Below, piece after piece: positions 589-35,074 of a DNA stretch of 37,094 nucleotides. Numbering within the stretch: the first letter of the stretch is position 1; every line of letters starts with the position of its first letter. The notes beneath the pieces were generated by a model. The model was given only the letters and a program-made list of their open reading frames with translations. It searched no databases and was not told the DNA's origin. Source of the stretch: Nitrosomonadales bacterium (GTDB lineage: Bacteria > Pseudomonadota > Gammaproteobacteria > Burkholderiales > SG8-41); contig JAYVQD010000074.1 of NCBI GenBank assembly GCA_043777275.1, forward strand, positions 1-37,094, given 5' to 3'. A program made the translations under genes and the position numbers.

Positions 589-1560
589 ATGATAAAAATT
601 CGCCGTGATTTTCTGGTTGTGTGCGCCGCGATTGGCGTGTGCGCGCCCGCAACTGCCCAAAATTATCCAGTGCAACCCATACGCGCGGTGGTGGGCTACG
701 CCGCAGGCGGCGGCGCCGACGGCATGATCCGCGCGATCTCGAACGAGTTATCCGAGGCGCTGGGCCAGCCGGTGATTATCGATAACCGGCCCGGCGGCGG
801 TACGGTGATCGCTACGCAGATCGTCGCCCAGAGCAAGCCCGACGGCTACACGGTGTACGTTGCTGATCCCGCGCTGATCTTTAACCCTTACCTGCTGCCC
901 AAGGTGCCGTACGACGCGGTGCGCGATTTTGCGCCGGTGGTGGCAGTGACGGTATCGAGCAGTTCCATGCTGGTGGTGCATCCGTCGTTTCCGGCCAGGA
1001 GCATCAAGGAGCTGGTGGCGATGGCGCGCGCGCAGCCGGGCAAGTTGAATTATGCGTCGGGGGGGAACGGCACGCTGCCGCATATTCTCACCGAGATGAT
1101 GAAGTACGAGGCGAAAATTGATCTTGCGCATGTGCCGTACAAAAGCACGGGGCTGGCGATTTATGCCGCCACCGCGGGCGAAGTGCCCATTGCCGCCGGC
1201 GGACTGTTTGCGGTGAAAGGGTTGGCCGATACCGGCAAGCTGCGTGCGCTGGCGATTGCGAGTGCGAAACGCAGCCCGCTGATGCCGCAGGTGCCGACGT
1301 TTGCGGAAAGCGGCTGGCCGATGATCGACGGCGCGAGTTATCGCGGGCTTATCGTGCCGGCGGCCACGCCGCGCGAAGCGATTTTGAGATTGAACGCCGC
1401 CACCAACAAGGTGCTGCAAATAGCGGCGGTGCGCAAACGATTTACCGATACCGACGGCGACGTGCTCGGCGGCACGCCGGAGGAATACGGCAAAATCATT
1501 CGCGCGGAGTTGGATAAATGGGGCAAGGTGATACGCAATGCCGGGATTAAAGTGGAGTAG
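589..1560 (+). CDS. Bug/TctC family tripartite tricarboxylate transporter substrate-binding protein
   Basis: YPVQPIRAVVGYAAGGGAD, DNRPGGG, PDGYT, YASGGNG, HVPYK motifs. Start may be 571 or 589. Confidence 0.93.
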   Translation: MIKIRRDFLVVCAAIGVCAPATAQNYPVQPIRAVVGYAAGGGADGMIRAISNELSEALGQPVIIDNRPGGGTVIATQIVAQSKPDGYTVYVADPALIFNPYLLPKVPYDAVRDFAPVVAVTVSSSSMLVVHPSFPARSIKELVAMARAQPGKLNYASGGNGTLPHILTEMMKYEAKIDLAHVPYKSTGLAIYAATAGEVPIAAGGLFAVKGLADTGKLRALAIASAKRSPLMPQVPTFAESGWPMIDGASYRGLIVPAATPREAILRLNAATNKVLQIAAVRKRFTDTDGDVLGGTPEEYGKIIRAELDKWGKVIRNAGIKVE

Positions 1561-1597
1561 CTTTGTTAATGCAATGATTTCGTAAATAATTATTTAA

Positions 1598-1610
1598 AAA
1601 CAAGTATTTA
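1598..1610 (+). promoter_or_regulatory. IHF-like box AAACAAGTATTTA
   Basis: One mismatch to WATCAANNNNTTR, with an upstream A/T tract. One of five near-identical copies. Confidence 0.45.
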
Positions 1611-1648
1611 CGGAATATTTTCTATCGGCGGTCTGATGCAGGGCGGCG

Positions 1649-1654
1649 TATAAT
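1649..1654 (+). promoter_or_regulatory. Consensus -10 box (TATAAT) 7 nt upstream of the ygiQ ATG
   Basis: GGCGTATAATGCGCGCCATG; no Shine-Dalgarno between the box and ATG 1662. Confidence 0.55.
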
Positions 1655-1661
1655 GCGCGCC

Positions 1662-3887
1662 ATGAAAACCGCTCTGCAAAACCTTGCCGGCAGTGTGCCG
1701 GACACACCCAAAGATATTTTCAGCCACCGCAAATATTGGGCGGCGCGTTTCGGCACGGCGCCGTATCTGCCGATGTCGCGCGCGGAAATGGAAGCGCTGG
1801 GTTGGGACGAGTGCGACATCATCATCGTTACCGGTGATGCGTATGTCGATCATCCGAGTTTCGGCATGGCGATTGTTGGCCGGTTGCTTGAAGCGCAGGG
1901 TTTTCGCGTCGGCATTATCGCGCAGCCCGATTGGCAAAGTGCCGATGCGTTCAAGGTGTTGGGCAAACCCAAACTGTTTTTCGGCGTCACCGCCGGCAAC
2001 ATGGATTCGATGGTCAATCGCTACACCGCCGACCGGCGGTTGCGCAGCGACGACGCCTACACGCCCGAGGCCGAAGGCGGCAAGCGTCCCGACCGCTCGG
2101 TGATCGTTTACAGCCAGCGCGCGCGCGAAGCGTATACCGATGTGCCGATTATCATCGGCGGCATTGAGGCGAGCTTGCGGCGCATCGCGCATTTTGATTA
2201 CTGGTCGGAGAAAGTGCGCCGCTCGGTGCTGATTGATGCCAAGGCCGACATGCTGGTCTACGGCAACGCCGAGCGCGCGATTGTTGATATTGCGCATCGC
2301 ATCGCGGCAGGAAAAAAGCCTTCCGAGATCACTGACATTCGCGGCACGTCGTTAGTGCGTGCAGCGGTGCCGGAAGGCTGGATTGAGATTGATTCGACGC
2401 GGATTGATTTGCCGGGGGCGCTGAATCCGCCGGTGGATCCTTATGCGAGCGAAGCGCAGAAGATGACGCAAGCAGCAGCAGCAGCAACCACCAGCAGCGG
2501 CGCGCAGGTGGTGCGCTTCATCCGCGAAGTCAAAAACGTCGATCGCGCCCGCAGCGTGATCCGCATGCCGTCGTTCGACGCGGTGGCGGGCGATCCGGTG
2601 CTCTACGCCCACGCCTCGCGCATCCTGCACGTCGAAGCCAACCCCGGCAACGCGCGCGCGCTGGTGCAGCGCCACGGCCAGCGCGACGTGTGGATCAACC
2701 CGCCGCCGATTCCGTTGACCATGAGCGAGATGGACGGGGTTTACGAACTGCCGTATGCGCGGCTGCCGCATCCGAGTTACGGCAAGGCGAAAATTCCCGC
2801 CTACGAGATGATCCGTTTTTCAGTGACCATCCAGCGCGGCTGCTTTGGCGGCTGCACCTTTTGTTCGATCACCGAACACGAAGGCCGCATCATCCAGAAT
2901 CGCTCCACCGATTCGATCATCAGCGAAATCGAAACCATCCGCGACACCGTGCCGGGCTTTACCGGCGTAATCTCCGACTTGGGCGGGCCGACGGCGAACA
3001 TGTATCGCCTCGCGTGCAAAAGCAAAACCATCGAATCAGCGTGTCGCCGCCCGTCGTGCGTGTTTCCCGGCATCTGCCCCAATCTGAACACCGATCACAC
3101 GCCGCTGATCGATATGTATCGTCGCGCACGCGCGTTGCCGGGCGTAAAAAAAGTGCTGATTGCCTCTGGCGTGCGCTACGACCTCGCCGCCGAATCGCCG
3201 GAGTATGTGAAAGAACTCGCGCAGCATCACGTCGGTGGTTATCTGAAAATCGCGCCCGAAGCCATCGGCGAAGGCCCGCTCTCCAAAATGATGAAGCCCG
3301 GCGTGGGCACCTATTACAAATTCAAAGAGTTGTTCGACAAATACTCCAAAGAGGCGGGCAAGGAGCAATACCTGATCCCGTATTTCATCGCGGCGCATCC
3401 GGGCACCACCGACGAAGACATGCTCGAACTTGCGGTGTGGCTAAAAACAAACGGTTTTCGCGCCGATCAGGTGCAGGCGTTTTTGCCCTCACCCATGGCC
3501 ACCGCCACCGCGATGTATCACTCCGGCAAAAACCCGCTGCGTAAAGTCACGCGCGACAGCGAAGACGTGATTATCCCCAAGGGTTTGAAGGTGCGCCGTT
3601 TGCACAAGGCGTTTTTGCGCTACCACGACGCCGAGAACTGGCCGACCATCCGCGACGCGCTAAAGCGCATGGGCCGTGACGATTTGATCGGCCCCAGCAA
3701 GCGCCACCTGGTGCCCGCCTATCAACCCATCGGCACCGGCAAACAGCCCGAAGGCGCGCGGCGGCCCGATAAGTATAAAAAGTATCAAGTGGCGCGCACG
3801 CAGCACACCGGCTTGCCGCCCGCGCCGGTAGCGACGGACAAAAAAATCCGCAGGCCCGCAGCCAAGTCACCGCGCGCCGGTCGCTGA
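1662..3887 (+). CDS. ygiQ: YgiQ family radical SAM protein (UPF0313)
   Basis: [46 protein letters not shown] (CxxxCxxC), [20 protein letters not shown]. Confidence 0.95.
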
Positions 3888-3912
3888 TCCACGGCACAGG
3901 TGTGCGACGGAG

Positions 3913-4605
3913 TTACGCGCCCTGCGCCACCGCAGCAACCTCACGCTCACGCCACGCTTTCATCGTGGACATCACCAGAAAATCCAGCAGGCAGTAAAAC
4001 ACGCCTGCCGCCAGCGGTGGATTGGTGGTGGTGAGGTCGAGCCACGGCACCACCGGGCGCCACACCCAGTTGCCGAGCCAAGTGCCGTAGATTTCCATGG
4101 TGAGTGAGAGCGCGAACATCACCGCGTAGAGTTTGCGCGCGTGGCTGAACGTCATGCACAGGATCAGCACCGCAAACAGCAATAGCCCGAAGGTATCGAT
4201 GCCGGTGAATGCCAGCAGCAGCACAAACGGCGCGGATGCCAGTGGCACGAACCAGGTGATCCAGTCGCGCAGGCGTCCGGCGATGATGATGCCGAGCATC
4301 AGCAGCAACGCGTGGCCCGGCGGCACGAACGCGGGAATGTTTTCCAGCCGGTAGTCGTACATGCCCCACACCAGCGACAAAAAACATTCGCCGAGCGTGG
4401 CGTACACCACGCACGCGGTGAGCATCACGCGCTCTTCGGTATCGCCCTGAAATCCCCAATGCAGCAATATCAGCCACAGGGTAAGACTGGTCAGCGTTTG
4501 TCCCCAGAACGGCACGAGCTGATCGAAGGCGAGGCCGGCGACGATCAAGCCGCAGATCACGGTGGCGCGCAGGTTGTCGCGTGTGTTTCGGGTTTCGATA
4601 AGCAT
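3913..4605 (-). CDS. Conserved hypothetical multi-pass membrane protein
   Basis: Likely start MLIETRN (ATG at 4605). About 7 hydrophobic segments with YRLENIPAFVPPGH and EIYGTWLGNWVW...NPP motifs. Confidence 0.75.
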   Translation of the reverse strand: MLIETRNTRDNLRATVICGLIVAGLAFDQLVPFWGQTLTSLTLWLILLHWGFQGDTEERVMLTACVVYATLGECFLSLVWGMYDYRLENIPAFVPPGHALLLMLGIIIAGRLRDWITWFVPLASAPFVLLLAFTGIDTFGLLLFAVLILCMTFSHARKLYAVMFALSLTMEIYGTWLGNWVWRPVVPWLDLTTTNPPLAAGVFYCLLDFLVMSTMKAWREREVAAVAQGA

Positions 4606-4690
4606 GGCAGGGTGCGATAATAACAAAGCGGTCGGGCGCAGTCCCGGCCTTTCATTACTTCGCAACACTTTCAAACCAAACGGAGTCACC

Positions 4691-5665
4691 ATGAAAACCT
4701 GCTGGATCAAATCAGACGCTACCTCCGCCGTACTCGAATACAAAGACATGCCGGTTCCCGAACCCAAGGCGGGCGAGGTGGTGCTGCGCAATTACGGCTC
4801 ATCGCTCAATCGCGGCGAGCTTATCGTCGGCAGCGTGGTGCATGGCGGGCCGTTGAAACTCGGCGGCGGCGACGGCGCGGGCGTGGTGCATGCCGTGGGC
4901 GCGGGCGTCACCCAATTCAAAGTGGGCGACAAAGTGTATGGGCGCGTGATGGGCGGCTGGGCCGAATATTGCGCCGCGCGCGCTGAGCAACTGATGCCGA
5001 TGCCGGAGCGGCTCACGTGGGAGCAGGCGGCGTCCGTGGGCGTGGCGTTTCTCACCGCGTATGAACTGATTTTCGCGCCCTACGGCAAACTGAAAAAAGG
5101 CGAAACACTGCTGGTGGCGGGCGCATCGTCCGGCGTGGGCGTGGCGGCAGTGCAAATCGGCAAGGCGCTGGGCTGCACCGTGATCGGCACCTCGGGTTCC
5201 GCCGACAAACTGGCGAAATTAAAGGCGCTGGGCATGGATCACGGCATCCAGACGCGCAAGCCCGATTTTGCCGCCAAGGTCAAAGAACTCACCGGCGGCA
5301 AGGGTGTCGATCTCGCGATCAACCTGGTCGGCGGCTCGATATTTCCTGAACTCATCCGCTCGCTCGCGCGCAAAGGCCGCATCGGCATCGTCGGCTACGT
5401 CGATGGCGTGTTGAAGGCCGAGATCGACCTCACCGCGCTGCACGCGAATCGCTTCGAGGTGTATGGCATTTCCAACAGCAAGGCCACCGTGGAAGAAAAA
5501 GCCGAGGCCATGCGCTGCTTTGTTCGCGACGTGGCGCCGATGTTAAACGACGGGCGCATCACGCCGGTGGTGGACAAGGTGTTTGCGTTTGATGATTTGC
5601 CGGCGGCGAAGCAGTATGTCGAGTCGGACGCGATGATGGGGAAGGTGGTGGTGCGGGTGCAGTAA
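4691..5665 (+). CDS. MDR superfamily NAD(P)H:quinone oxidoreductase-like (zinc-binding dehydrogenase family) protein
   Basis: GGAG RBS before ATG 4691. P.PKAGEV, GDGAGVV, AGASSGVG nucleotide-binding motif, C-terminal GKVVV. Confidence 0.9.
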   Translation: MKTCWIKSDATSAVLEYKDMPVPEPKAGEVVLRNYGSSLNRGELIVGSVVHGGPLKLGGGDGAGVVHAVGAGVTQFKVGDKVYGRVMGGWAEYCAARAEQLMPMPERLTWEQAASVGVAFLTAYELIFAPYGKLKKGETLLVAGASSGVGVAAVQIGKALGCTVIGTSGSADKLAKLKALGMDHGIQTRKPDFAAKVKELTGGKGVDLAINLVGGSIFPELIRSLARKGRIGIVGYVDGVLKAEIDLTALHANRFEVYGISNSKATVEEKAEAMRCFVRDVAPMLNDGRITPVVDKVFAFDDLPAAKQYVESDAMMGKVVVRVQ

Positions 5666-5705
5666 GTAAAATAGTTCGTCGTTGTCTTCCTATCCGGAGT
5701 GTCCC

Positions 5706-6710
5706 ATGTCGTGTCGCAGGTTAAGCAGGATCGCCGTGGTGTTGCCGTTAGCGTGCTTCGTGACGAACGCAGCCTCACAGCACGACGCAAAAGCCGCCGC
5801 CGCCACGGCCGCGGATTACCCGCGTAAACCCATCCGCATCATCATCGGCTTTACGCCTGGCGGCGGCCCGGACATTACCGCGCGCTACCTTGCGCAAAAA
5901 CTTACCGAGTCGTTAAAGCAGCAGGTGATCGTGGATAACCGTCCCGGCGCGGGCGGCACTGTCGGCGCGAATCTGGTGGCGACCGCGAACCCCGATGGCT
6001 ACACGCTGCTGTCGGTGTCGTCGGCGCACGCGGTGAGCCCGGCCATCTATGCAAAACTGCCTTACGATACGGTCAAGGATTTGTCGGGCATCACGCAGAC
6101 TGCGGTGTCGAAGTATTTGCTGGTGGCCGCGCCTTCGCTGGGCGCTAAAACGCTGAAAGATTTCCTCGCGGCGGCGAAAGCCAAGCCGGGAAACCTTAAT
6201 TTCTCGTCGGCAGGCGTGGGCAGCGGTTCGCATTTCGCCGCCGAGCAGTTCAAGGCCGCAGCGGCGATCAACATGGTGCATGTGCCGTTCAAGGGCATAC
6301 CCGAAGCACTGACGGAGACCATCAGCGGGCGCGTGCATCTGTTTATGGCGCCGATCGCCAACGCGCTGAATATGGTGAAAGAAGGCCGGGTCATTGGATT
6401 GGGCGTGTCGTCGTCGCAACGCGATGCGCTGCTGCCCGACATGCCATCGCTGGCGGAAGCGGGGCTGCCGGGATTTCGCGCGGATTTGTGGTTTGGCCTG
6501 CTTACGTCGTCGCAAGCGCCGAAATCCATCGTGAACAAACTCAATGGTGAAATTCGCCGCATACTCAGCGACACCGACGTGAAGCAGCGCTGGCAGCCCA
6601 TCGGCTTGGAGCCGAAGCCGACCACACCGGGCGAGTTCGACAAAATTGTTATGGATGAAATCGCCGTGTTCTCCAAAATCGCGCGCGCCGCCAACATCAA
6701 GGCAGATTAA
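5706..6710 (+). CDS. Bug/TctC family substrate-binding protein
   Basis: YPRKPIRIIIGFTPGGGPD, DNRPGAGG, PDGYTLL, SSAGVGSGSH, HVPFKG. Confidence 0.93.
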   Translation: MSCRRLSRIAVVLPLACFVTNAASQHDAKAAAATAADYPRKPIRIIIGFTPGGGPDITARYLAQKLTESLKQQVIVDNRPGAGGTVGANLVATANPDGYTLLSVSSAHAVSPAIYAKLPYDTVKDLSGITQTAVSKYLLVAAPSLGAKTLKDFLAAAKAKPGNLNFSSAGVGSGSHFAAEQFKAAAAINMVHVPFKGIPEALTETISGRVHLFMAPIANALNMVKEGRVIGLGVSSSQRDALLPDMPSLAEAGLPGFRADLWFGLLTSSQAPKSIVNKLNGEIRRILSDTDVKQRWQPIGLEPKPTTPGEFDKIVMDEIAVFSKIARAANIKAD

Positions 6711-26997: not shown

Positions 26998-27444
26998 ATG
27001 ATTATCGTTGAATCGCAACATTTCACCATCCTTACACCAGAACAGCCGCATGTGTCGCGCGGCGACGGCGGGCATTTGATCATCAATCCCAAGGCGGCGG
27101 TGGAAGATCGCACGCAGCTTGATCGTGAACTGGCGATAGAGCTGATGAAGCTGACCATGGTGGCGGGCGCGGCGATGAAAACCGTGTTGACCCAGCGCGG
27201 CATCGACATCGGCCGAATCAACTATCAGGACAACGGCAACTGGCGCCACGAACTGCACGTGCATCTGTATGGCCGCGCGCGCGGCGCCACGTTGCAACCC
27301 TACGGCCACTATCTTGCGTTGCCGCTCACGGCGCAGGCGTTCAAGGCGCAGGCGCCGTTGCAGCCGCTCAACGCCGACGATGTGGCCGCGCTGAAAACGG
27401 AGACAACGCACTTGCTGGCGACAGCGAAATACCAGACGTTTTAA
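26998..27444 (+). CDS. HIT family protein
   Basis: GGHLII, RINYQDNGNW and ELHVHLY histidine-triad-like motif. Confidence 0.78.
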   Translation: MIIVESQHFTILTPEQPHVSRGDGGHLIINPKAAVEDRTQLDRELAIELMKLTMVAGAAMKTVLTQRGIDIGRINYQDNGNWRHELHVHLYGRARGATLQPYGHYLALPLTAQAFKAQAPLQPLNADDVAALKTETTHLLATAKYQTF

Positions 27445-28412
27445 TTCCCTTTCGCGCCCGACGCTTTTACCGCGGCCGCCCATTTTGTGATTTCGAGCGG
27501 CATTAGTTTGGTGAGTTCATCCGGCGAACCGGCGACGATATCGACGCCCTGTTCGGTCAGGCGCTTAACGATATCGGGCGCTTGTATCGATTTGCTGAAC
27601 GCGGCGTGCAGCTTTAGCACCACATCGCGCGGCATGCCGGTCGGCCCCATCAGCGCATACCAGCCGCTGGATTCAAAACCCGGAATGGTTTCGGCGACGG
27701 TCGGTACTTGCGGTAACGTGGTGGTTCGTTTCGCGCCGCAGGTGGCGATGGCGCGCAGTTTGCCTGACTGGATAAACTGTATCGTGGCCAGCGTGGTGTT
27801 CACCTGAAATTGCACATGGCCCGCGATAATGTCGTTCAACGCCAGCCCCGCGCCTTTGTAGGGGATATTGAGCACGTCAATCTTCGCTGCCGCGCGCAGC
27901 ATTTCAACCGCGAGAAATGCCGACGTGCCGCCGGAGGTGCCGGCGGTCAGTTGGCCTGGGCGCGCCTTCGCCAGCGCAATGAATTCCTTCACGTTGCTCA
28001 CCGGCAATGACGGATGCGTGAGCAGCACGTTCTGCGTCAACGCCAACTGGCTGATCATGGTGAAATCACGCACCGGATCGAAATTGAGTTTGGCGAACAG
28101 GCTCGGATTGATCGCGTGCGGCGTGGTGGCCATCAACACGGTGTAACCATCCGGTGCGGAACGCGCCACCAACTCCGTGCCGATGTTGGTGGAAGCGCCG
28201 GCGCGATTTTCGATAATCATGTTTTGCCCAAGATTTTCAGTCAGCTTCGCACTCAACATCCGCGACAGAATATCCGTGCCGCCGCCCGGCGCGGCCGGCA
28301 CGATGATGCGTATGGCTTTGGCAGGGAAGGTTTGCGCGAGCGCGTTTCCCATCACCAGCAGCCACGTGACGCTGCACAACGTTTTGATCGAAGCACGTAA
28401 GGCGGTTTTCAT
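27441..28412 (-). CDS. Bug/TctC family substrate-binding protein
   Basis: FPAKAIRIIVPAAPGGGTD, ENRAGA, APDGYT, IPYKG. Converges on the HIT gene with a 4-nt TTAA overlap. Confidence 0.93.
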   Translation of the reverse strand: MKTALRASIKTLCSVTWLLVMGNALAQTFPAKAIRIIVPAAPGGGTDILSRMLSAKLTENLGQNMIIENRAGASTNIGTELVARSAPDGYTVLMATTPHAINPSLFAKLNFDPVRDFTMISQLALTQNVLLTHPSLPVSNVKEFIALAKARPGQLTAGTSGGTSAFLAVEMLRAAAKIDVLNIPYKGAGLALNDIIAGHVQFQVNTTLATIQFIQSGKLRAIATCGAKRTTTLPQVPTVAETIPGFESSGWYALMGPTGMPRDVVLKLHAAFSKSIQAPDIVKRLTEQGVDIVAGSPDELTKLMPLEITKWAAAVKASGAKGN

Positions 28413-28470: not shown

Positions 28471-28600
28471 TGACAGTGCGACCTACTGTGCCGTCAGGCG
28501 CGTGCCGCGCTATTTGCATGGCAGGACTGTAGCCTGAGTTCGTTACAATGCAAAGAACCAACGCACCGATTTGTCCGCATCAATCAACAGGGAGCCCGCT

Positions 28601-29572
28601 ATGTCAGTCATTCTCGGCAGTGGTGAACACCGTTACGAAGTCATCGACCACTGGGCCAAGTTGCCCGATGGCTGGTCGTTCAAGGACGTGGGCGCGGTTG
28701 CCACCGACAGCAAAGATCAGGTTTATGTATTCAACCGCGGCGAGCACCCGATGATGGTGTTCGACCGCGACGGCAACTTTCTGCGCTCGTGGGGCGAGGG
28801 CCAGTACCCGCGTGCGCACGGCCTGCACATAGACGCAGACGACACGCTGTATCTCACCGACGACGGCGGCCACGTGGTGCGCAAATGCACGACGATGGGC
28901 AAAATCCTGATGGAGATCGGCACCCCCGGCAAACCCACGCCGTATATGAGCGGCCTGCCGTTTCACCGCTGCACGCATACCGCGTTATCGCCCACCGGTG
29001 ATATTTATGTCTCCGACGGTTACGGCAACGCCAAGGTGCATAAATATTCACCGGACGGCAAACTGATTAAATCATGGGGCGAGCCGGGCACCGACCCCGG
29101 CCAGTTCAACATCGTGCATAACATCGTCACCGACCGCGACGGCTGGGTGTATGTCGCTGACCGCGAAAACCACCGCGTGCAGGTGTTCGATGGCAATGGC
29201 AAATACGAAGCGCAGTGGAACAACATGCATCGGCCCTGCGGATTGTTTTGCAATCTGGGCAATCCCGGCGCACAGCCGGAATTTATCATCGGGGAACTCG
29301 GCTCCGGTGCGCGTGTGAATCGATTGCATCCGAACATTGGCCCGCGCATCAGCATCGTTGATAAAAAAGGCACGGTAATCTCGCGCCTCGGCGGGCAGAA
29401 CGGCCCCGGCAACGTCACCGGAAAATTCATCGCCCCGCATGGCGTGGCGCTGGATCGGCATGGGGATATTTATGTGGGTGAGGTGAGCTTCACCGATTGG
29501 CCGACCACGCATCCGGATGAACCGATTCCGGCTAACTTGCGGTCTTTGCAGAAGTTGCGGAAGGTGAAATGA
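28601..29572 (+). CDS. NHL-repeat beta-propeller, peptidyl-alpha-hydroxyglycine alpha-amidating lyase-like family
   Basis: GGGAG RBS. VYVFNRGEHP, AHGLHID, YVSDGYGNAKVHKY, YVADRENHRVQVFD, PHGVALD. Confidence 0.9.
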   Translation: MSVILGSGEHRYEVIDHWAKLPDGWSFKDVGAVATDSKDQVYVFNRGEHPMMVFDRDGNFLRSWGEGQYPRAHGLHIDADDTLYLTDDGGHVVRKCTTMGKILMEIGTPGKPTPYMSGLPFHRCTHTALSPTGDIYVSDGYGNAKVHKYSPDGKLIKSWGEPGTDPGQFNIVHNIVTDRDGWVYVADRENHRVQVFDGNGKYEAQWNNMHRPCGLFCNLGNPGAQPEFIIGELGSGARVNRLHPNIGPRISIVDKKGTVISRLGGQNGPGNVTGKFIAPHGVALDRHGDIYVGEVSFTDWPTTHPDEPIPANLRSLQKLRKVK

Positions 29573-29643: not shown

Positions 29644-29670
29644 CGTCATTCCCGCGCAGGCGGGAATCCA
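29644..29670 (+). repeat. CGTC-type REP / dRS3-like palindrome, single copy
   Basis: CGTCATTCCCGCGCAGGCGGGAATCCA fits ATTCCC-N8-GGGAAT preceded by CGTC. Confidence 0.75.
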
Positions 29671-29756: not shown

Positions 29757-30128
29757 ATGAACGAACCCGTGACCCTGCGGCTCGACGCCAGCACTCGCAA
29801 GCGGCTGGATCAGATCGCCAAGACAGTGCGACGTAACCGAGCGGCTTTGGCGGCAGAAGCCGTGCGGCAATTCGTGGAGTTAAACGAGCGGCAGATCGCC
29901 GCCATTCAAGAAGGTATTAACCAAGCTGATAGCGGCCAGTTCATAGAGCATGCAATACTGAAAGGTGAATGGGAGAAAAAAAATCGCGGCGGGCGACGCG
30001 GATATCGCGGATGGGCGATTGCTGACTACGGAGCAGGTATTTGCGGCGGTCACGAAGCAGCGAGCCAAGCGCGTCGGCAAAGCAAGAAAAGCGGTTTGAG
30101 TATTATCGACGTTAACTTCTTCGCTTGA
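29757..30128 (+). pseudogene. CopG/ribbon-helix-helix antitoxin-like gene, disrupted or chimeric at an A8 run; no intact toxin
   Basis: VTLRLD...RLDQIAK...R..LAAEAVRQFVE...IQEGINQADSG is a typical RHH antitoxin. After the A8 run (29976-29983) the +1 frame encodes a second antitoxin-like tail ending at TGA 30097-30099. Confidence 0.7.
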
Positions 30129-30154
30129 AAGTGCTTACGTTCCCTGTGTTGTCG

Positions 30155-30180
30155 CCCTAAGCCGGCTAAGGGAGTACAAT
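30155..30180 (+). promoter_or_regulatory. Putative promoter of the methyltransferase operon with an 18-bp near-palindromic operator before a TACAAT -10
   Basis: CCCTAAGCCGGCTAAGGG (30155-30172; 16/18 self-complementary), then AG, then TACAAT (30175-30180). Confidence 0.45.
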
Positions 30181-30240
30181 TCTCGAATATCTCCTTGGCT
30201 TGAGATGACAATTTAGGCAAATTTAAATTTGGAGTTTTAA

Positions 30241-31443
30241 TTGGGCAAAGTCCTGAAAATTACCATCCGACAGCCTCACAAATATTATGCCGTTGATAAG
30301 CTGCCGCCAAAGACCGTAGTGGAGTTCTTCGCGGGAATTGGCCTTATGCGAATGGGTTTGGAAAAAGCAGGATGGAAGACGATACTTGCCAACGACATTG
30401 ATCCACTCAAGTTGGAAATGTATAGTTGTCAATTTGGAGATGAGATTAATCATTTCATTCTTCGCGACATTCATAAATTAACCCCCGAAGAAATTCCTAC
30501 TGCCACGCTCGCTACGGCTTCGTTCCCATGCACGGATTTGTCGCTTGCGGGTGGGCGTAAAGGGCTATCCGGGGCTCAATCTTCCGCGTTCTGGGGATTT
30601 ATCAATGTGATTAAAGCTATGGGACGCAGACGCCCTCGATTTTTGCTAATCGAAAATGTCACAGGTTTTTTGACTTCGCACCAAGGCAAGGATTTTCAAG
30701 AGGCGTTGCTTGCGCTGAACAAATTAGGCTATGGAGTAGACCCGTTCATAATCGACGCTGCGAGATTTGTACCGCAAAGCCGGCAGCGGCTATTCGTGGC
30801 AGGCGTACTACGTGACGGAAGATCAGCAGAATCTAAGAGAAGTTTTGGATTCTATGAAAGTGAGGCTCGCCCGAAAGCGCTTGCAGATTTCATATTCAAC
30901 CATCCCGAAATTGATTGGGCGTTGGTGAATTTGCCGCCTCTACCCAAATTACGCATGGTGGTGGACGACATTTTGGAGGATTTGCCGGCGAGCTCAGAAT
31001 CGTGGTGGAGCCTGGATCGCGTAGATTATTTGCTTGCGCAAATGAGCATCAAACACCGCGCGATAGCCGATAAGATGATACGCACTCGACGTTGGTCTTA
31101 CGGAACCGTTTTCCGGAGAGTGCGTAATGAAAAATCAATGGCGGAACTTCGCGTTGACGGAATTGCTGGATGTTTACGTACACCCAAGGGTGGAAGCGGG
31201 CGGCAGATATTGTTCAAGGGTGGTTATGGTAAAGCGATGGCGCGTTTACTGTCGCCACGCGAATGCGCGCGGCTGATGGGCGCTGATGATTTCAAAATTG
31301 AAGCGCCGCTCAATCAGGCATTGTTTGGCTTCGGGGACGCGGTCTGCGTCTCCGTTGTTGAGTGGATTGCTAAGAATTATTTTGATCCGCTTATCGCGAT
31401 GTCTGGTAGCTATATGGCACCCCAAGAGTTGGCGACTGCATGA
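30241..31443 (+). CDS. dcm: DNA (cytosine-5)-methyltransferase
   Basis: Motif I EFFAGIG, IV SFPCTDLS, VI IENVTG, VIII PQSRQR, IX RLLSPRECARLMG, X FGDAV. TTG start 6 nt after GGAG. Confidence 0.95.
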   Translation: MGKVLKITIRQPHKYYAVDKLPPKTVVEFFAGIGLMRMGLEKAGWKTILANDIDPLKLEMYSCQFGDEINHFILRDIHKLTPEEIPTATLATASFPCTDLSLAGGRKGLSGAQSSAFWGFINVIKAMGRRRPRFLLIENVTGFLTSHQGKDFQEALLALNKLGYGVDPFIIDAARFVPQSRQRLFVAGVLRDGRSAESKRSFGFYESEARPKALADFIFNHPEIDWALVNLPPLPKLRMVVDDILEDLPASSESWWSLDRVDYLLAQMSIKHRAIADKMIRTRRWSYGTVFRRVRNEKSMAELRVDGIAGCLRTPKGGSGRQILFKGGYGKAMARLLSPRECARLMGADDFKIEAPLNQALFGFGDAVCVSVVEWIAKNYFDPLIAMSGSYMAPQELATA

Positions 31444-32387
31444 CGACGCTCGAACCTCTGAATAAGTGGTACGCGAGCCTTAATGTATATAAAGGCGGTT
31501 TTCCTGCTAGAGGAACTTTAGCGGGTGCTTTGGCTGTTACGGAGCGACTCAAGCAAAAATTCAAGCTTGATCTTGCGTTCCACACGGCTAAAGGTGGCAC
31601 ACAAGTCAAAGGGGCAAGTGGCGCGGCGGTTGGGAAAATCCTCGCACAATTGGGAGAGCATCGGAAATTCCTCAAAGAGGGTGGTCGCACCAATCGGGGT
31701 TTACGAGCGGAAATAGGTGCTTTCCTGGACGCTATCGATAAACTTGGTTTAGCGGGTTTGTCCAGCGAAAAGCGCGTGGTCGCGCTTGAAGACATTCAGC
31801 GCTTCTTGCTTGCTCGAGTGCGGGATTTTTTCAGCCGCGAACGGATTAAGTTCGTTTTTACAACTGAAAAAAGCACAGCCAATTTGATCGGCGATATTCT
31901 AGCCGTTTCACGTGTCAGTGGTAAGGAAGGACCAGTTGCGCAGTATTTGGTTGGGGCCAAGCTGCAATTGCGCTTTCCGAGCATCTCTATCTCGAATGAC
32001 TCTTATGCGGCGGCAGATGAGCAAACCGGAAGGCTGGGCGACTTTACGGTTCAAGACACCGCATTTCATGTGACTGTGGCGCCAATGACGGCCGTTTTTG
32101 AAAAATGCGTAACCAACCTTAACGAAGGCAAAAACGCATTCCTACTTGTTCCGGCGCGTAGTGTCGAAGGCGCGAGACAGAATGCCGATAATATTGCGAG
32201 CGGAAGAATCGACGTCTCGGCGATTGAGTCATTTGTTGGCTTTAACGTCAATGAAATAGCCATGTTTGGCAAGGGTGCATCCACGAAGGCGCTGCTGAAA
32301 CTTCTGGAGATTTACAACGCACGAGTGAAAGAGGTCGAAACGGATTTATCGTTAATGATCGAAATCCCTAAAAATCTCGGTGCCTGA
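31440..32387 (+). CDS. DUF4928-like protein, candidate restriction endonuclease/effector
   Basis: G.QV.G...AV.KIL...EGGRTNRG, QYLVGAKL, AD...GR.GDF...FHVT, RIDV..IE.FV..N..E match my recollection of DUF4928. ATGA overlap with the MTase stop. Confidence 0.75.
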   Translation: MTTLEPLNKWYASLNVYKGGFPARGTLAGALAVTERLKQKFKLDLAFHTAKGGTQVKGASGAAVGKILAQLGEHRKFLKEGGRTNRGLRAEIGAFLDAIDKLGLAGLSSEKRVVALEDIQRFLLARVRDFFSRERIKFVFTTEKSTANLIGDILAVSRVSGKEGPVAQYLVGAKLQLRFPSISISNDSYAAADEQTGRLGDFTVQDTAFHVTVAPMTAVFEKCVTNLNEGKNAFLLVPARSVEGARQNADNIASGRIDVSAIESFVGFNVNEIAMFGKGASTKALLKLLEIYNARVKEVETDLSLMIEIPKNLGA

Positions 32388-32454
32388 TGTTGTCGCAATA
32401 GGGATGGCAGGCGGACTCAGGGTAGGGTAGAAAACTTTTGATTCCGGTCTGGCG

Positions 32455-32859
32455 ATGGTAGATATTTTTGACAAGGCCGCACGTAGTCTGATCATGTCCC
32501 GCGTCAAAGGAAAAGACACGGAACCTGAGATGGCGGTCAGGAAAATCGCGTTTGGCTTGGGCTATAGGTATCGTTTGCATTGCGCACATCTTCCGGGCAA
32601 GCCGGACTTAGTCTTTCCACGACTTCGCAAAGTCATATTTGTGCATGGCTGTTTCTGGCATCGACATGGATGCGCGAACGCTACTACGCCTACTTCGAAT
32701 ATCGAATATTGGCTGCCAAAATTCGCGAAGAATATTCAGCGGGATAAGCGAAATTCTCGCAGCCTGAAGCAGCTTGGCTGGAAGTGCTTAGTCATTTGGG
32801 AGTGCCAGATCAAACATCACGCGCGCGTGACTGATCGTATAAGCCGATTTCTTTCGTAA
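32455..32859 (+). CDS. vsr: Very short patch repair endonuclease
   Basis: RSLIMSRVKGKDTEPE, LPGKPDLVF, IFVHGCFWHRH, YWLPKF..N..RD, LGW..LVIWECQ. Confidence 0.96.
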   Translation: MVDIFDKAARSLIMSRVKGKDTEPEMAVRKIAFGLGYRYRLHCAHLPGKPDLVFPRLRKVIFVHGCFWHRHGCANATTPTSNIEYWLPKFAKNIQRDKRNSRSLKQLGWKCLVIWECQIKHHARVTDRISRFLS

Positions 32860-32916
32860 CTGGTACCGACTGATCGCCGATTGACTGCGGCACTTTTCCA
32901 ACGGGTGCGAGCGCAC

Positions 32917-33996
32917 TTATCTTGCGGCGACTAAGGCCTGAATTCCCTGATCCACAACCCGAAGCCCGGCGTCAATCACCTGCTTCCGCCAAGTCACTGA
33001 CTCAGGACAAAAACACTCCCGAAGTTCTTCCTTTGCCCTGAGGTAATCCGGGCTATCCGGCGCGCAATAGTGATGCGCGCGATTCTCGGCGCGCAGTGCG
33101 GCGAGTACGCGGATCACGTCATAGGTGCCAAACTCCGCGCCCGCGAAGCGATAATCCCGCGTTCGGAAATGATGCTGCATCCACGGACCAAATTCACCGG
33201 AGACGCGGTACGCCATGCCGTCAGGCTTTGTGAGCGGTTCGATATGATCTGCTCCGAATGTTTCGGCGTACCAATCGCGGCGCTCCGAATAGGCTGATTC
33301 CGTGAGCAGCAGCTTATAGTTTCCGTGTGGGCCCAAGCCAGTGTGCAGGTCTATATGCACGATGTGCCGGGACGCCGCCAACCATGAGTCGCAATTGTCT
33401 TGCACGATTTTCGTCGAGGCACACGGCTTTTTCCCGCCGTAAAAAAGCCCGCGTGGATATTCGTACTGGCCGCGCGCGACGGTCTCTTTTAATGCGGGCA
33501 AGCCCATACGCCAGATTTTCCAAAGCGCTTTGGCTTTGAAGGGTTCAAACCTTGACGGCGGGGATTCGGGATTCAGCAGGCCATTGAGTCCGGCATAACC
33601 GCTTGGGGCGCCAGCGTAATCATCGGCGCTCGCCATGAAATTACGATTCAGATCGACATTGCCTTCGTTGACGCGGCGCAGGTGCGCGAAGCCGTAGGGG
33701 TTGACGGCGTGAATCAGCACATAGCGAATGCCTTGCTTATCGTTCGTTGCTTTGAGGCGTTCAAGCAACGCAAGTTGCACCGCCGAGCCGAAAAAGCCTT
33801 CGACGCCGTGAACGCCCGATGACACCACCAGCGCGGGGTCGCTTTCCGCGCCGACAATCGCGACGTCGATGGTAAGATTTTCCTCTGCGGCGGCATCGAT
33901 GACATACGAATGCACTGTGGCGTCAACCGCGCGGGCGGCCTCGATGAATCTACGCCGGGCCTCTGCGTACGACCGCGAGAAATATCGTTCGCTCAC
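32917..33996 (-). CDS. M14-like zinc metallopeptidase / DUF2817 family protein
   Basis: FSRSYAEARRRF, SGVHGVEGFFGS (HxxE), NPYGF, NVDLNRNF, DLHTGLG, EFGT. Confidence 0.85.
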   Translation of the reverse strand: MSERYFSRSYAEARRRFIEAARAVDATVHSYVIDAAAEENLTIDVAIVGAESDPALVVSSGVHGVEGFFGSAVQLALLERLKATNDKQGIRYVLIHAVNPYGFAHLRRVNEGNVDLNRNFMASADDYAGAPSGYAGLNGLLNPESPPSRFEPFKAKALWKIWRMGLPALKETVARGQYEYPRGLFYGGKKPCASTKIVQDNCDSWLAASRHIVHIDLHTGLGPHGNYKLLLTESAYSERRDWYAETFGADHIEPLTKPDGMAYRVSGEFGPWMQHHFRTRDYRFAGAEFGTYDVIRVLAALRAENRAHHYCAPDSPDYLRAKEELRECFCPESVTWRKQVIDAGLRVVDQGIQALVAAR

Positions 33997-34005
33997 ATCA
34001 CGCGC

Positions 34006-34998
34006 TCAATTCGCCCGTATCCCCGCCTCTTTAACCACCTTCGCCCAGGTCTGCACGTCCGTGGCGATCTGCACGGCCAGTTCCTTGGGCGTGCTGCCCG
34101 CGGGCTCCGCGCCCATGTCGGCAAGCCGGGTCTGCACGTCGGGTTTCTTGAAAATATTCACCATTTCGCTGTTGAGCTTGGCGATGATGGGTTGCGGTAC
34201 TTTCAGCGGGGCGACCATGCCGTACCATTCGCGCATTTCCAGCCCCGCCGGCAGCGGCAAGCCGGCTTCGGCGATGGTGGGTATGTCAGGCAACGCGCTT
34301 GAACGCTTGGCGCTGGTGACGACGACTGCGCGCAGGCGCTTGGACTGTATCAACGGCATCGCCGAGGGCACCGAGGCGAAGGCGAAGGTGACTTCGCCCG
34401 CGGCGACCGCCACCAGCGCGGGGCCGCCACCCTTGAACGGCACATGGGTCATGTTGGTGCCGGTCAGTCGCTTGAAGACTTCTCCCGCCAGGTGATGCAG
34501 CGAGCCGTTGCCGGATGATGCGTTGGACACCTGCCCCGGTTTTTCTTTGGCCAGCCGAATCAGATCCTGCAGGTTGTTCACGGGGGAATTCTGCGGCACC
34601 ACGATGGCGTTGGTGACCCACGCCAGCAGGGAGATGGCCGCGAACCCGGTGGCGGTGTCGTAAGGCAGCTTGTCGTAGGTGCTGGCGCTGACGGTAAACG
34701 GCCCGCTGGGAACCATCATCAGGGTGTAACCGTCGGGCGTGGCCTTATGCACCATGTCGGCGGCGATGGTGCCGCCCGCGCCGCCGCGGTTATCGATCAC
34801 CACCGGCTGCCCCCATGCGGGCGTGAGCTGCGCGCTCAGGATGCGCGCGAGAATGTCGGTCGCGCCGCCGGGCGGAAAGCCGACAACAATGCGGATCGGC
34901 TTGGCCGGGTAATTGGCCGCGGCATCTTGGGCAGATACGCCTGATGCGCCAAAAATAGCGGTAGAGATTGCCAGTGCCGTAAGTGCTTGCTTTTGCAT
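34006..34998 (-). CDS. Bug/TctC family substrate-binding protein
   Basis: YPAKPIRIVVGFPPGGATD, DNRGGAGG, PDGYTL, SSGNGSLHHLAGE, HVPFKGG. Start MQKQAL at 34998. Confidence 0.93.
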   Translation of the reverse strand: MQKQALTALAISTAIFGASGVSAQDAAANYPAKPIRIVVGFPPGGATDILARILSAQLTPAWGQPVVIDNRGGAGGTIAADMVHKATPDGYTLMMVPSGPFTVSASTYDKLPYDTATGFAAISLLAWVTNAIVVPQNSPVNNLQDLIRLAKEKPGQVSNASSGNGSLHHLAGEVFKRLTGTNMTHVPFKGGGPALVAVAAGEVTFAFASVPSAMPLIQSKRLRAVVVTSAKRSSALPDIPTIAEAGLPLPAGLEMREWYGMVAPLKVPQPIIAKLNSEMVNIFKKPDVQTRLADMGAEPAGSTPKELAVQIATDVQTWAKVVKEAGIRAN

Positions 34999-35074
34999 GA
35001 TGTGACTCCAATAGACTGCATTATTCATGAAGGCGATGCTCATTGATACCGTGTCGGACGACAACGCAAATGCC

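Follow-up and report, generated by a model that had tools for sequence, protein, structure and literature searches.

A 37,094-nucleotide stretch of DNA from a Nitrosomonadales bacterium (contig JAYVQD010000074.1 of assembly GCA_043777275.1), hereafter called the window, contains three genes lying in the same orientation on the + strand: a C5 cytosine DNA methyltransferase gene, a gene for a protein of Pfam family DUF4928, and vsr. These are exactly the three + strand frames of the open reading frame (ORF) list. The features of the locus are the following:

30241..31443, + strand: C5 cytosine DNA methyltransferase of the M.PluTI type, 400 aa (PF00145, TIGR00675, PADLOC MTase_II).
31440..32387, + strand: predicted restriction endonuclease of the R.PluTI family (Pfam DUF4928), 315 aa, ATG start (PF16280, PDLC03543).
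32455..32859, + strand: very-short-patch repair endonuclease Vsr, 134 aa, ATG start (PF03852, TIGR00632, PADLOC Vsr).
30231..30234, + strand: GGAG, likely ribosome-binding site, 6 nt 5' of the TTG start of the methyltransferase (read from the sequence).
31440..31443, + strand: ATGA overlap of methyltransferase stop and endonuclease start, from the ORF list, printed as GCATGACG.
30130..32900, no strand: low-G+C islet containing the module, G+C 0.493 against 0.59 for the window (composition and flank comparison).

The islet is bordered by an NHL-repeat gene (28571-29572) and a DUF2817 gene (32917-33996, minus strand). Regional G+C is 0.45-0.52 over 30000-32750 and 0.58-0.65 to either side. Third-codon-position G+C is 0.50, 0.50 and 0.53 in the module genes, in order, against 0.65-0.79 in four flanking genes. 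An earlier, sequence-only reading of this DNA had described three co-oriented, A/T-richer genes, with ATGA at 31440-31443 and a 67-nt spacer between endonuclease and vsr genes; the ORF list and the composition analysis confirmed each of these points. The ATGA overlap would be expected to provide translational coupling of the endonuclease to the methyltransferase.

The window DUF4928 protein matches PF16280 over its full length (1.6e-88, profile positions 1-306 of 306), and the PADLOC REase_II model PDLC03543 at 2.4e-56. Using an enterobacterial plasmid homologue as query, a 331-aa protein named 'MULTISPECIES: DUF4928 family protein [Photorhabdus]' (P0428) was found, which shares 40% identity with the window protein across 305-310 residues (E 7e-63). 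P0428 carries all 19 residues at the R.PluTI numbering of PMC2875022, and EGGRTSRG at 87-94. These 19 matching positions and the organism label, rather than an accession, lead us to infer that P0428 is R.PluTI (plu0599). PDLC03543 (331 positions) can be taken as the PluTI model because it matches P0428 end to end (1-331, 784 bits); REBASE is among the references of the PADLOC web-server paper. At the 19 published positions, the window protein has 15 identical residues and 2 conservative replacements (R232 to K222 and D319 to E308). Family members carry the public names 'DUF4928' or 'hypothetical', and a Xenorhabdus homologue has the UniRef name 'Type IIF restriction enzyme'. The middle protein has no NCBIfam and no PHROGs model, and searching PDB sequences with the single protein or an 81-sequence profile gave nothing below E 0.5.

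According to the available text of Khan et al. (2010, PMC2875022), plu0599 of Photorhabdus luminescens was expressed and purified as R.PluTI, a Type IIF enzyme by its kinetics that cuts GGCGC^C. Its partner M.PluTI confers protection on DNA and suppresses the lethality of R.PluTI. The family then counted 12 homologues, with a methyltransferase gene upstream and co-oriented in 9 of the 12. GD (210-211), HX(T/S) (220-222), EGGRTSRG (87-94) and conserved polar residues were listed as its features. In the same text the fold of PluTI was left unassigned and considered possibly new, and a variant active centre was guessed. The methylome of strain TT01 gives GG(m5C)GCC as the product of M.PluTI, as far as the available part of PMC6092372 goes.

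Full-length similarity to the R.PluTI family, the GD, HxT and EGGRTxRG motifs, and an upstream co-oriented C5 methyltransferase are all present at the window locus. Judged by homology, the middle protein is a restriction endonuclease of this already characterised family. The locus as a whole is best read, with a probability of about 0.85, as a PluTI-family m5C Type II restriction-modification module of the standard kind, plus Vsr. The sequence-only reading had placed a restriction endonuclease in the middle position, and the identity to presumed R.PluTI and the PADLOC lookup that it suggested both bear this out. Its proposal of a new class of restriction enzyme is ruled out by the match to the R.PluTI family, and its view of a family without biochemical characterisation falls with the purification and demonstrated cleavage of R.PluTI (PMC2875022, available text). 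Nothing was found to support a non-cleaving or modification-dependent effector. By its own account a match to an already characterised restriction enzyme would remove the novelty, and R.PluTI is such a match. Altogether, the locus was spotted correctly but is an ordinary restriction-modification islet, one member of its endonuclease family having been purified before.

The family is large: 1641 proteins were retained at E <= 0.001 among 6412 candidates (90% clusters), and there are 793 representatives at 50% identity. The Pfam/NCBI label 'DUF4928' conceals a restriction enzyme family of that many clusters in genome annotations, and tying PF16280 to R.PluTI would correct many of them. In the literature, DUF4928 was named only in a list for Marinobacter islands, next to Vsr and a C5 methyltransferase, and the term 'PF16280' was not found in a literature search. 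PluTI is sold commercially, and it appears in many papers that are not about restriction enzymes.

The methyltransferase is recognised by PF00145 (5.3e-49, profile positions 2-322 of 324), TIGR00675 (5.5e-49) and PADLOC MTase_II PDLC03243 (1.1e-113). Its catalytic and AdoMet motifs are complete, in the expected order and spacing (FAGIG 30-34, PC 96-97, ENV 138-140, QSRQR 179-183, RECARLMG 340-347 and GDAV 365-368). Alignments with homologues begin at residue 21-25, which requires a start upstream of motif I. An Enterobacter plasmid methyltransferase is 42% identical to it over 345 aa, target-recognition region included; this plasmid gene adjoins a DUF4928 gene whose product is 70% identical to P0428. 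Vsr is matched by TIGR00632 (4.2e-42, 143.2 bits for a cut-off of 97.85), PF03852 (1e-30, 105.8 bits for a cut-off of 27) and the PADLOC Vsr model (7.1e-35). NCBIfam agrees with Pfam on the first and third genes. The Vsr motifs are complete (PGKPD 47-51, FVHGCFWH 62-69 and WEC 115-117), the first two being presumably the conserved catalytic and zinc motif. Enzymes of the Vsr family nick 5' of the T in T:G mismatches arising from 5-methylcytosine deamination.

These Pfam and PADLOC matches bear out the m5C Type II restriction-modification module with Vsr that had been proposed from the letters. Like E. coli Dcm-Vsr and m5C restriction-modification loci with vsr, the window locus links a C5 methyltransferase to Vsr over curated cut-offs. 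Unlike Dcm-Vsr-type pairs, it has an endonuclease gene between methyltransferase and vsr. Many close homologues of the methyltransferase (P0134-P0232) are fusions with Vsr, of 519-555 aa.

Gene linkage was assayed in the best 80 loci of at least 567 relatives, obtained by a degenerate-pattern scan with one genome per species. These loci span Chloroflexota, Bacteroidota, Planctomycetota, Acidobacteriota, Nitrospirota, Bacillota and others, and partner genes were sought by tblastn with the window methyltransferase and Vsr. An adjacent co-oriented C5 methyltransferase was present in 75 of the 80 loci (70 upstream, 5 downstream), so the neighbourhood survey called for by the sequence-only reading came out in favour of linkage. 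Two further loci have a decayed methyltransferase beside DUF4928, frameshifted in L062 and a fragment in L073. Vsr lies within 2 kb in 65 of the 80. With M for methyltransferase and R for endonuclease, the gene orders in 79 of these loci and the window were Vsr-M-R (31), M-R-Vsr (26, window included) and M-R (15), the rarer ones being R-M-Vsr (4), R-M (1) and R alone (3). On a quick maximum-likelihood tree of DUF4928 from 79 loci and the window (L083, whose best match was <280 residues, was dropped), gene order clusters, with 24 changes against a shuffled mean of 40.3 and a value as low in 0 of 200 shuffles. Methyltransferase-DUF4928 fusions were found twice among the 150 representatives listed (P0271 and P0316, 721 aa and 586 aa).

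The family was also found on 25 plasmid records (16 conjugative, 6 mobilizable), and the methyltransferase lies immediately upstream of DUF4928 in all three of the plasmid contexts inspected. No DUF4928 copy was present among 50,697 phage records. In the phylum of the window the family is rare, with 4 of 401 genomes positive (unpublished G412 included) and none of 14 control genomes. The module also occurs on small mobilizable plasmids of Pseudomonas, Achromobacter, Serratia, Burkholderia and Aeromonas. The Pseudomonas aeruginosa plasmid pNECK1 (NZ_MK047609.1, locus L002) carries a methyltransferase-DUF4928-Vsr module at 3805-6295, with resistance-gene cassettes (blaIMP-63, aac(6')-Ib4) a few kb away.

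The structure of the middle protein was predicted with AlphaFold2 using the 81-sequence family alignment, and the model was confident throughout (pLDDT 95.0, pTM 0.88). The predicted N-terminal domain (about 1-132) is helical, with the EGGRTNRG loop (80-87) between helices 61-70 and 88-101. The predicted C-terminal domain (about 134-300) is alpha/beta. It comprises helix 163-178 (with Q168 and K174), D193, strand 202-204 just past D201, strand 207-211 (with H210), helix 217-228, strand 232-237, helix 239-253, strand 257-261 and further helices. The motifs EGGRTNRG, QYLVGAKL (168-175), GDF (200-202) and FHVT (209-212) are among the most conserved columns of the alignment. Conserved residues of the C-terminal domain are K174, D193, R198, G200-D201, H210-V-T212, N269, E272, Y292-N293, E300 and D302. 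D193 and N293 are invariant (81/81), H210 is found in 80, T212 in 78 and K174, on the preceding helix, in 74 of the 81 sequences.

According to the model, the family has a PD-(D/E)xK-fold domain with an alpha-beta-beta-beta-alpha-beta core, where GD201 takes the place of 'PD' and H210-V-T212 that of '(D/E)xK'. The nuclease-fold check suggested by the sequence-only reading was thus positive. That reading had already noticed the missing canonical PD-(D/E)xK, with GD...HxT in its place, and had pointed to EGGRTNRG as a possible DNA-contacting segment. The conservation given above agrees with both observations, although GD, HX(T/S) and EGGRTSRG were already in the available text of PMC2875022. The catalytic role of the D...HxT centre is assigned by analogy, and its metal-binding and water-activating residues are putative. 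The predicted fold answers the question left open in 2010, and the HxT variant of the active site is directly testable by mutagenesis. This fold assignment is the only addition made here and could be obtained with any structure predictor; it was not found in the papers searched on DUF4928, PF16280, PluTI and EcoT38I, nor in the main text of PMC3424549.

Homodimer prediction gave a score of 0.70 (pLDDT of the partner at least 86), the best of three controls reaching 0.00, and at least 97% of contacts agreed between runs. Among reference proteins, 20 of 30 known as same-chain pairs passed the mark, as did 1 of 23 known as single chains from their solved structures, counts that hold only roughly here, our own alignment having been used. 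The predicted interface is symmetric and lies in the C-terminal domain (143-148, 178-182, 204-207, 232-234 and 255-280). A homodimer of the middle protein is supported by this modelling.

The system might then work as follows. The C5 methyltransferase, judging from its homologues, would methylate one cytosine in a short GC-rich palindrome on host DNA. The proposed endonuclease steps draw on the model, on conservation and on PluTI biochemistry: the DUF4928 enzyme would associate at least as a homodimer via its PD-(D/E)xK-fold domain, read the site with its helical N-terminal domain and cut unmethylated incoming DNA with Mg2+. The active centre would be formed by D193, D201, H210 and T212, with K174 supplied by the preceding helix. 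Translation of the endonuclease would depend on prior translation of the methyltransferase through the ATGA overlap. Finally, Vsr would nick T:G mismatches at methylated sites and limit the mutational cost of the system.

Several observations weigh against this reading of the locus. Two of the 19 published PluTI positions are changed in the window protein (E149 to T141 and T223 to V213). The canonical (D/E)xK is absent, and the next strand after D201 carries H210-V-T212. The positive dimer prediction could reflect model memory of solved EcoT38I-like dimers. Moreover, PluTI behaves as a Type IIF enzyme (PMC2875022, available text), probably a tetramer, and the prediction for the window protein covers a homodimer. 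GGCGCC is not clearly depleted in the window, with 27 sites against 36.5 +/- 6.2 in shuffles, and the count was at least 27 in 96 of 100 shuffles. Shared specificity is not assured at 40% identity for the endonuclease and 42% for the methyltransferase, the latter value referring to the PluTI-type proxy from the Enterobacter plasmid and not to M.PluTI itself. Finally, 3 of the 80 DUF4928 loci have no methyltransferase within 5 kb:

L035, 4696-5580: DUF4928 gene.
L037, 5001-5870: DUF4928 gene.
L024, 5001-5927: DUF4928 gene.

L035 and L037 come from one Acidobacteriota genome bin, and the L035 gene lies beside Rhs/YD-repeat genes. In L024, Vsr and an inserted gene with a NOV_C (DUF3883) domain take the place of the methyltransferase. 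On the tree these three loci nest among normal pairs, and secondary loss is likely.

The two changed positions are what a silent or inactivated endonuclease gene might show, and the locus would then be a remnant that now serves as a solitary methyltransferase with Vsr. Decay does occur in the family, as seen in L062 and L073 and in the truncated homologues mentioned in the available text of PMC2875022. In the window, however, the endonuclease frame is open and full length, D193, D201, H210, T212, K174 and N293 are all kept, the ATGA coupling is intact and the structure model is confident from end to end, which makes a remnant improbable. It is far less probable still, to the point of being hardly credible, that DUF4928 is no nuclease at all and acts as a DNA-binding accessory of methylation or of very-short-patch repair. 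The absence of a canonical (D/E)xK and the frequent company of Vsr would fit such a role. Yet the type member of the family has in vitro cleavage activity on DNA and kills cells that lack its methyltransferase (PMC2875022, available text), at least 14 of the 80 loci have DUF4928 without Vsr while the methyltransferase is almost always present, and the C-terminal domain is a predicted nuclease fold with invariant acidic residues.

The recognition sequence is the weakest step of this interpretation. By analogy with PluTI it may be GGCGCC, cut GGCGC^C, and we rate this at slightly below even odds. There is about an even chance that the PluTI-family module recognises another sequence, as specificity often varies within restriction-enzyme families. 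The modest identities of both enzymes to their PluTI counterparts and the lack of clear GGCGCC avoidance in the window are in keeping with a different site, as is the diversity of DUF4928 partners across the 80 loci, where methyltransferases are 37-66% identical to that of the window and three gene orders occur. On the other hand, the window and Enterobacter plasmid methyltransferases align with few gaps through the target-recognition region, and the EGGRTxRG loop and other conserved polar residues of the endonuclease are retained, which speaks for the PluTI site.

The wider relationships of the PluTI-type endonuclease were approached through structure and profile comparisons. The predicted DUF4928 structure resembles EcoT38I overall (PDB 7edb with DNA, 7e8r without), but identity is only 11-13%, and both the single sequence and the family profile miss EcoT38I among PDB sequences. 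Among the papers found to name EcoT38I, none is structural. The main text of the 2008 classification (PMC2441816) names neither EcoT38I nor BanII, and that of the 2012 PD-(D/E)xK survey (PMC3424549) does not name PluTI. The PD-(D/E)xK cleavage domains of the FokI, BspD6I and MspJI types also count among the closest known systems.

By language-model features, the nearest non-DUF4928 clusters are HaeII (PF09554, 0.93) and SacI (PF09566, 0.87). They share an 'AAD..QT/RG..GD' stretch followed by an [E/Q/H]x[K/T] strand. In HaeII (RGCGC^Y), SacI (GAGCT^C) and EcoT38I (GRGCY^C) the cut follows the fifth base, as in PluTI, which would be compatible with a single lineage. Both HaeII and SacI have been assigned to PD-(D/E)xK (PMC3424549, available text). 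None of the 81 DUF4928 members has a HaeII or SacI Pfam match, even at E <= 10. With a 6-sequence HaeII alignment built from genomes, the hhalign probability of HaeII against DUF4928 is 0.12%, and the HaeII profile does not match EcoT38I. RE_SacI gave three weak partial matches only in 401 genomes. Loci L107 and L108 each contain a 377-aa ORF (1249-2382, minus strand) that matches only the catalytic end of RE_SacI (22 bits) and carries 'NAADLQT..GD...YEMKMKHVT', resembling the DUF4928 core 'AADEQTGRLGDF...FHVT'. A 377-aa SacI-like ORF of this kind compares with DUF4928 at E 0.053 over 40 columns (hhalign) and has no PDB sequence match. Homology of HaeII and SacI to DUF4928 is not supported by these profile comparisons and is kept as a lead only.

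Tentatively, and with somewhat more doubt than for the GGCGCC site, PluTI/DUF4928 can be described as a two-domain EcoT38I-like enzyme, with a D...HxT PD-(D/E)xK core and a helix-donated lysine. EcoT38I, and perhaps HaeII and SacI, would belong to the same lineage, whose members cut GC-rich 6-bp palindromes behind base 5 and produce 4-nt 3' overhangs.

The site occupied by the module was compared with related genomes. Both flanks of the islet match same-genus genomes at 79-89% identity, and among the matches listed, none outside the window's own genome (G000) covers the module (query 1603-4433). The distance between the flanks is 860 bp in G010, against 3417 bp at the window locus. Different cargo was found at the same site in three genomes:

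L086, 2659-3348 (genome G010): SRA-like plus HNH protein.
L105, 1254-4248 (genome G016): toxin-antitoxin pair, a different C5 methyltransferase (N-terminal HTH), Vsr and a 322-aa ORF.
L106, 353-2113 (genome G005): RHH-ParE pair and HNH_2 nuclease (PADLOC PDLC04132, 6.7e-114).

The varying cargo and the lack of the module in the listed same-genus matches indicate a variable defence hotspot and horizontal acquisition. As judged from these alignments, the module is strain-specific and newly and horizontally acquired by the window genome. No convincing direct or inverted terminal repeats were found around the islet, and no Rfam family matched in the window. The PluTI system of P. luminescens TT01 has in common with the window module a PF16280/PDLC03543 endonuclease, a co-oriented order with the methyltransferase first and the C5 type. 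Each is also a small unit replacing other DNA at a conserved chromosomal site (PMC2875022, available text). They differ in that the endonucleases are 60% different in sequence, that vsr lies downstream at the window locus, and that the PluTI unit carries plu0597 and plu0598 (helicase-like, OLD-like) and IS-derived 16-bp direct repeats (same text).

Neither Pfam nor PADLOC gives a match for the 322-aa ORF of G016 (L105 3280-4248, + strand), which directly follows the C5 methyltransferase and Vsr and may encode a restriction enzyme of a family not yet described.

At the edge of the islet, an ORF at 29757-30128 (+) encodes a ribbon-helix-helix RelB/ParD-like antitoxin (NF048017, 2.7e-4) and, through an A8 tract near 29973-29980, continues into a tail unrelated to it. 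In G005, an intact ParE toxin gene, absent from the window locus, comes after the gene for a homologous 86-aa antitoxin. The 29757-30128 ORF appears to be what is left of a toxin-antitoxin pair. A 26-nt palindromic REP-like element at 29645-29670 (GTCATTCCCGCGCAGGCGGGAATCCA) is present as a single copy in the window; the surrounding 35-50 bp (query 1133-1195) occur in many copies in the window genome and in same-genus genomes, at 88-100% identity. The host genome assembly comprises 602 contigs and is 94.8% complete. Further from the module, the window encodes a TctC-type tripartite tricarboxylate transporter receptor at 27441-28412 (minus strand; Pfam PF03401, 6.6e-71), and an ORF at 34006-35064 (minus strand) that resembles a TctC-type receptor, as judged by eye.

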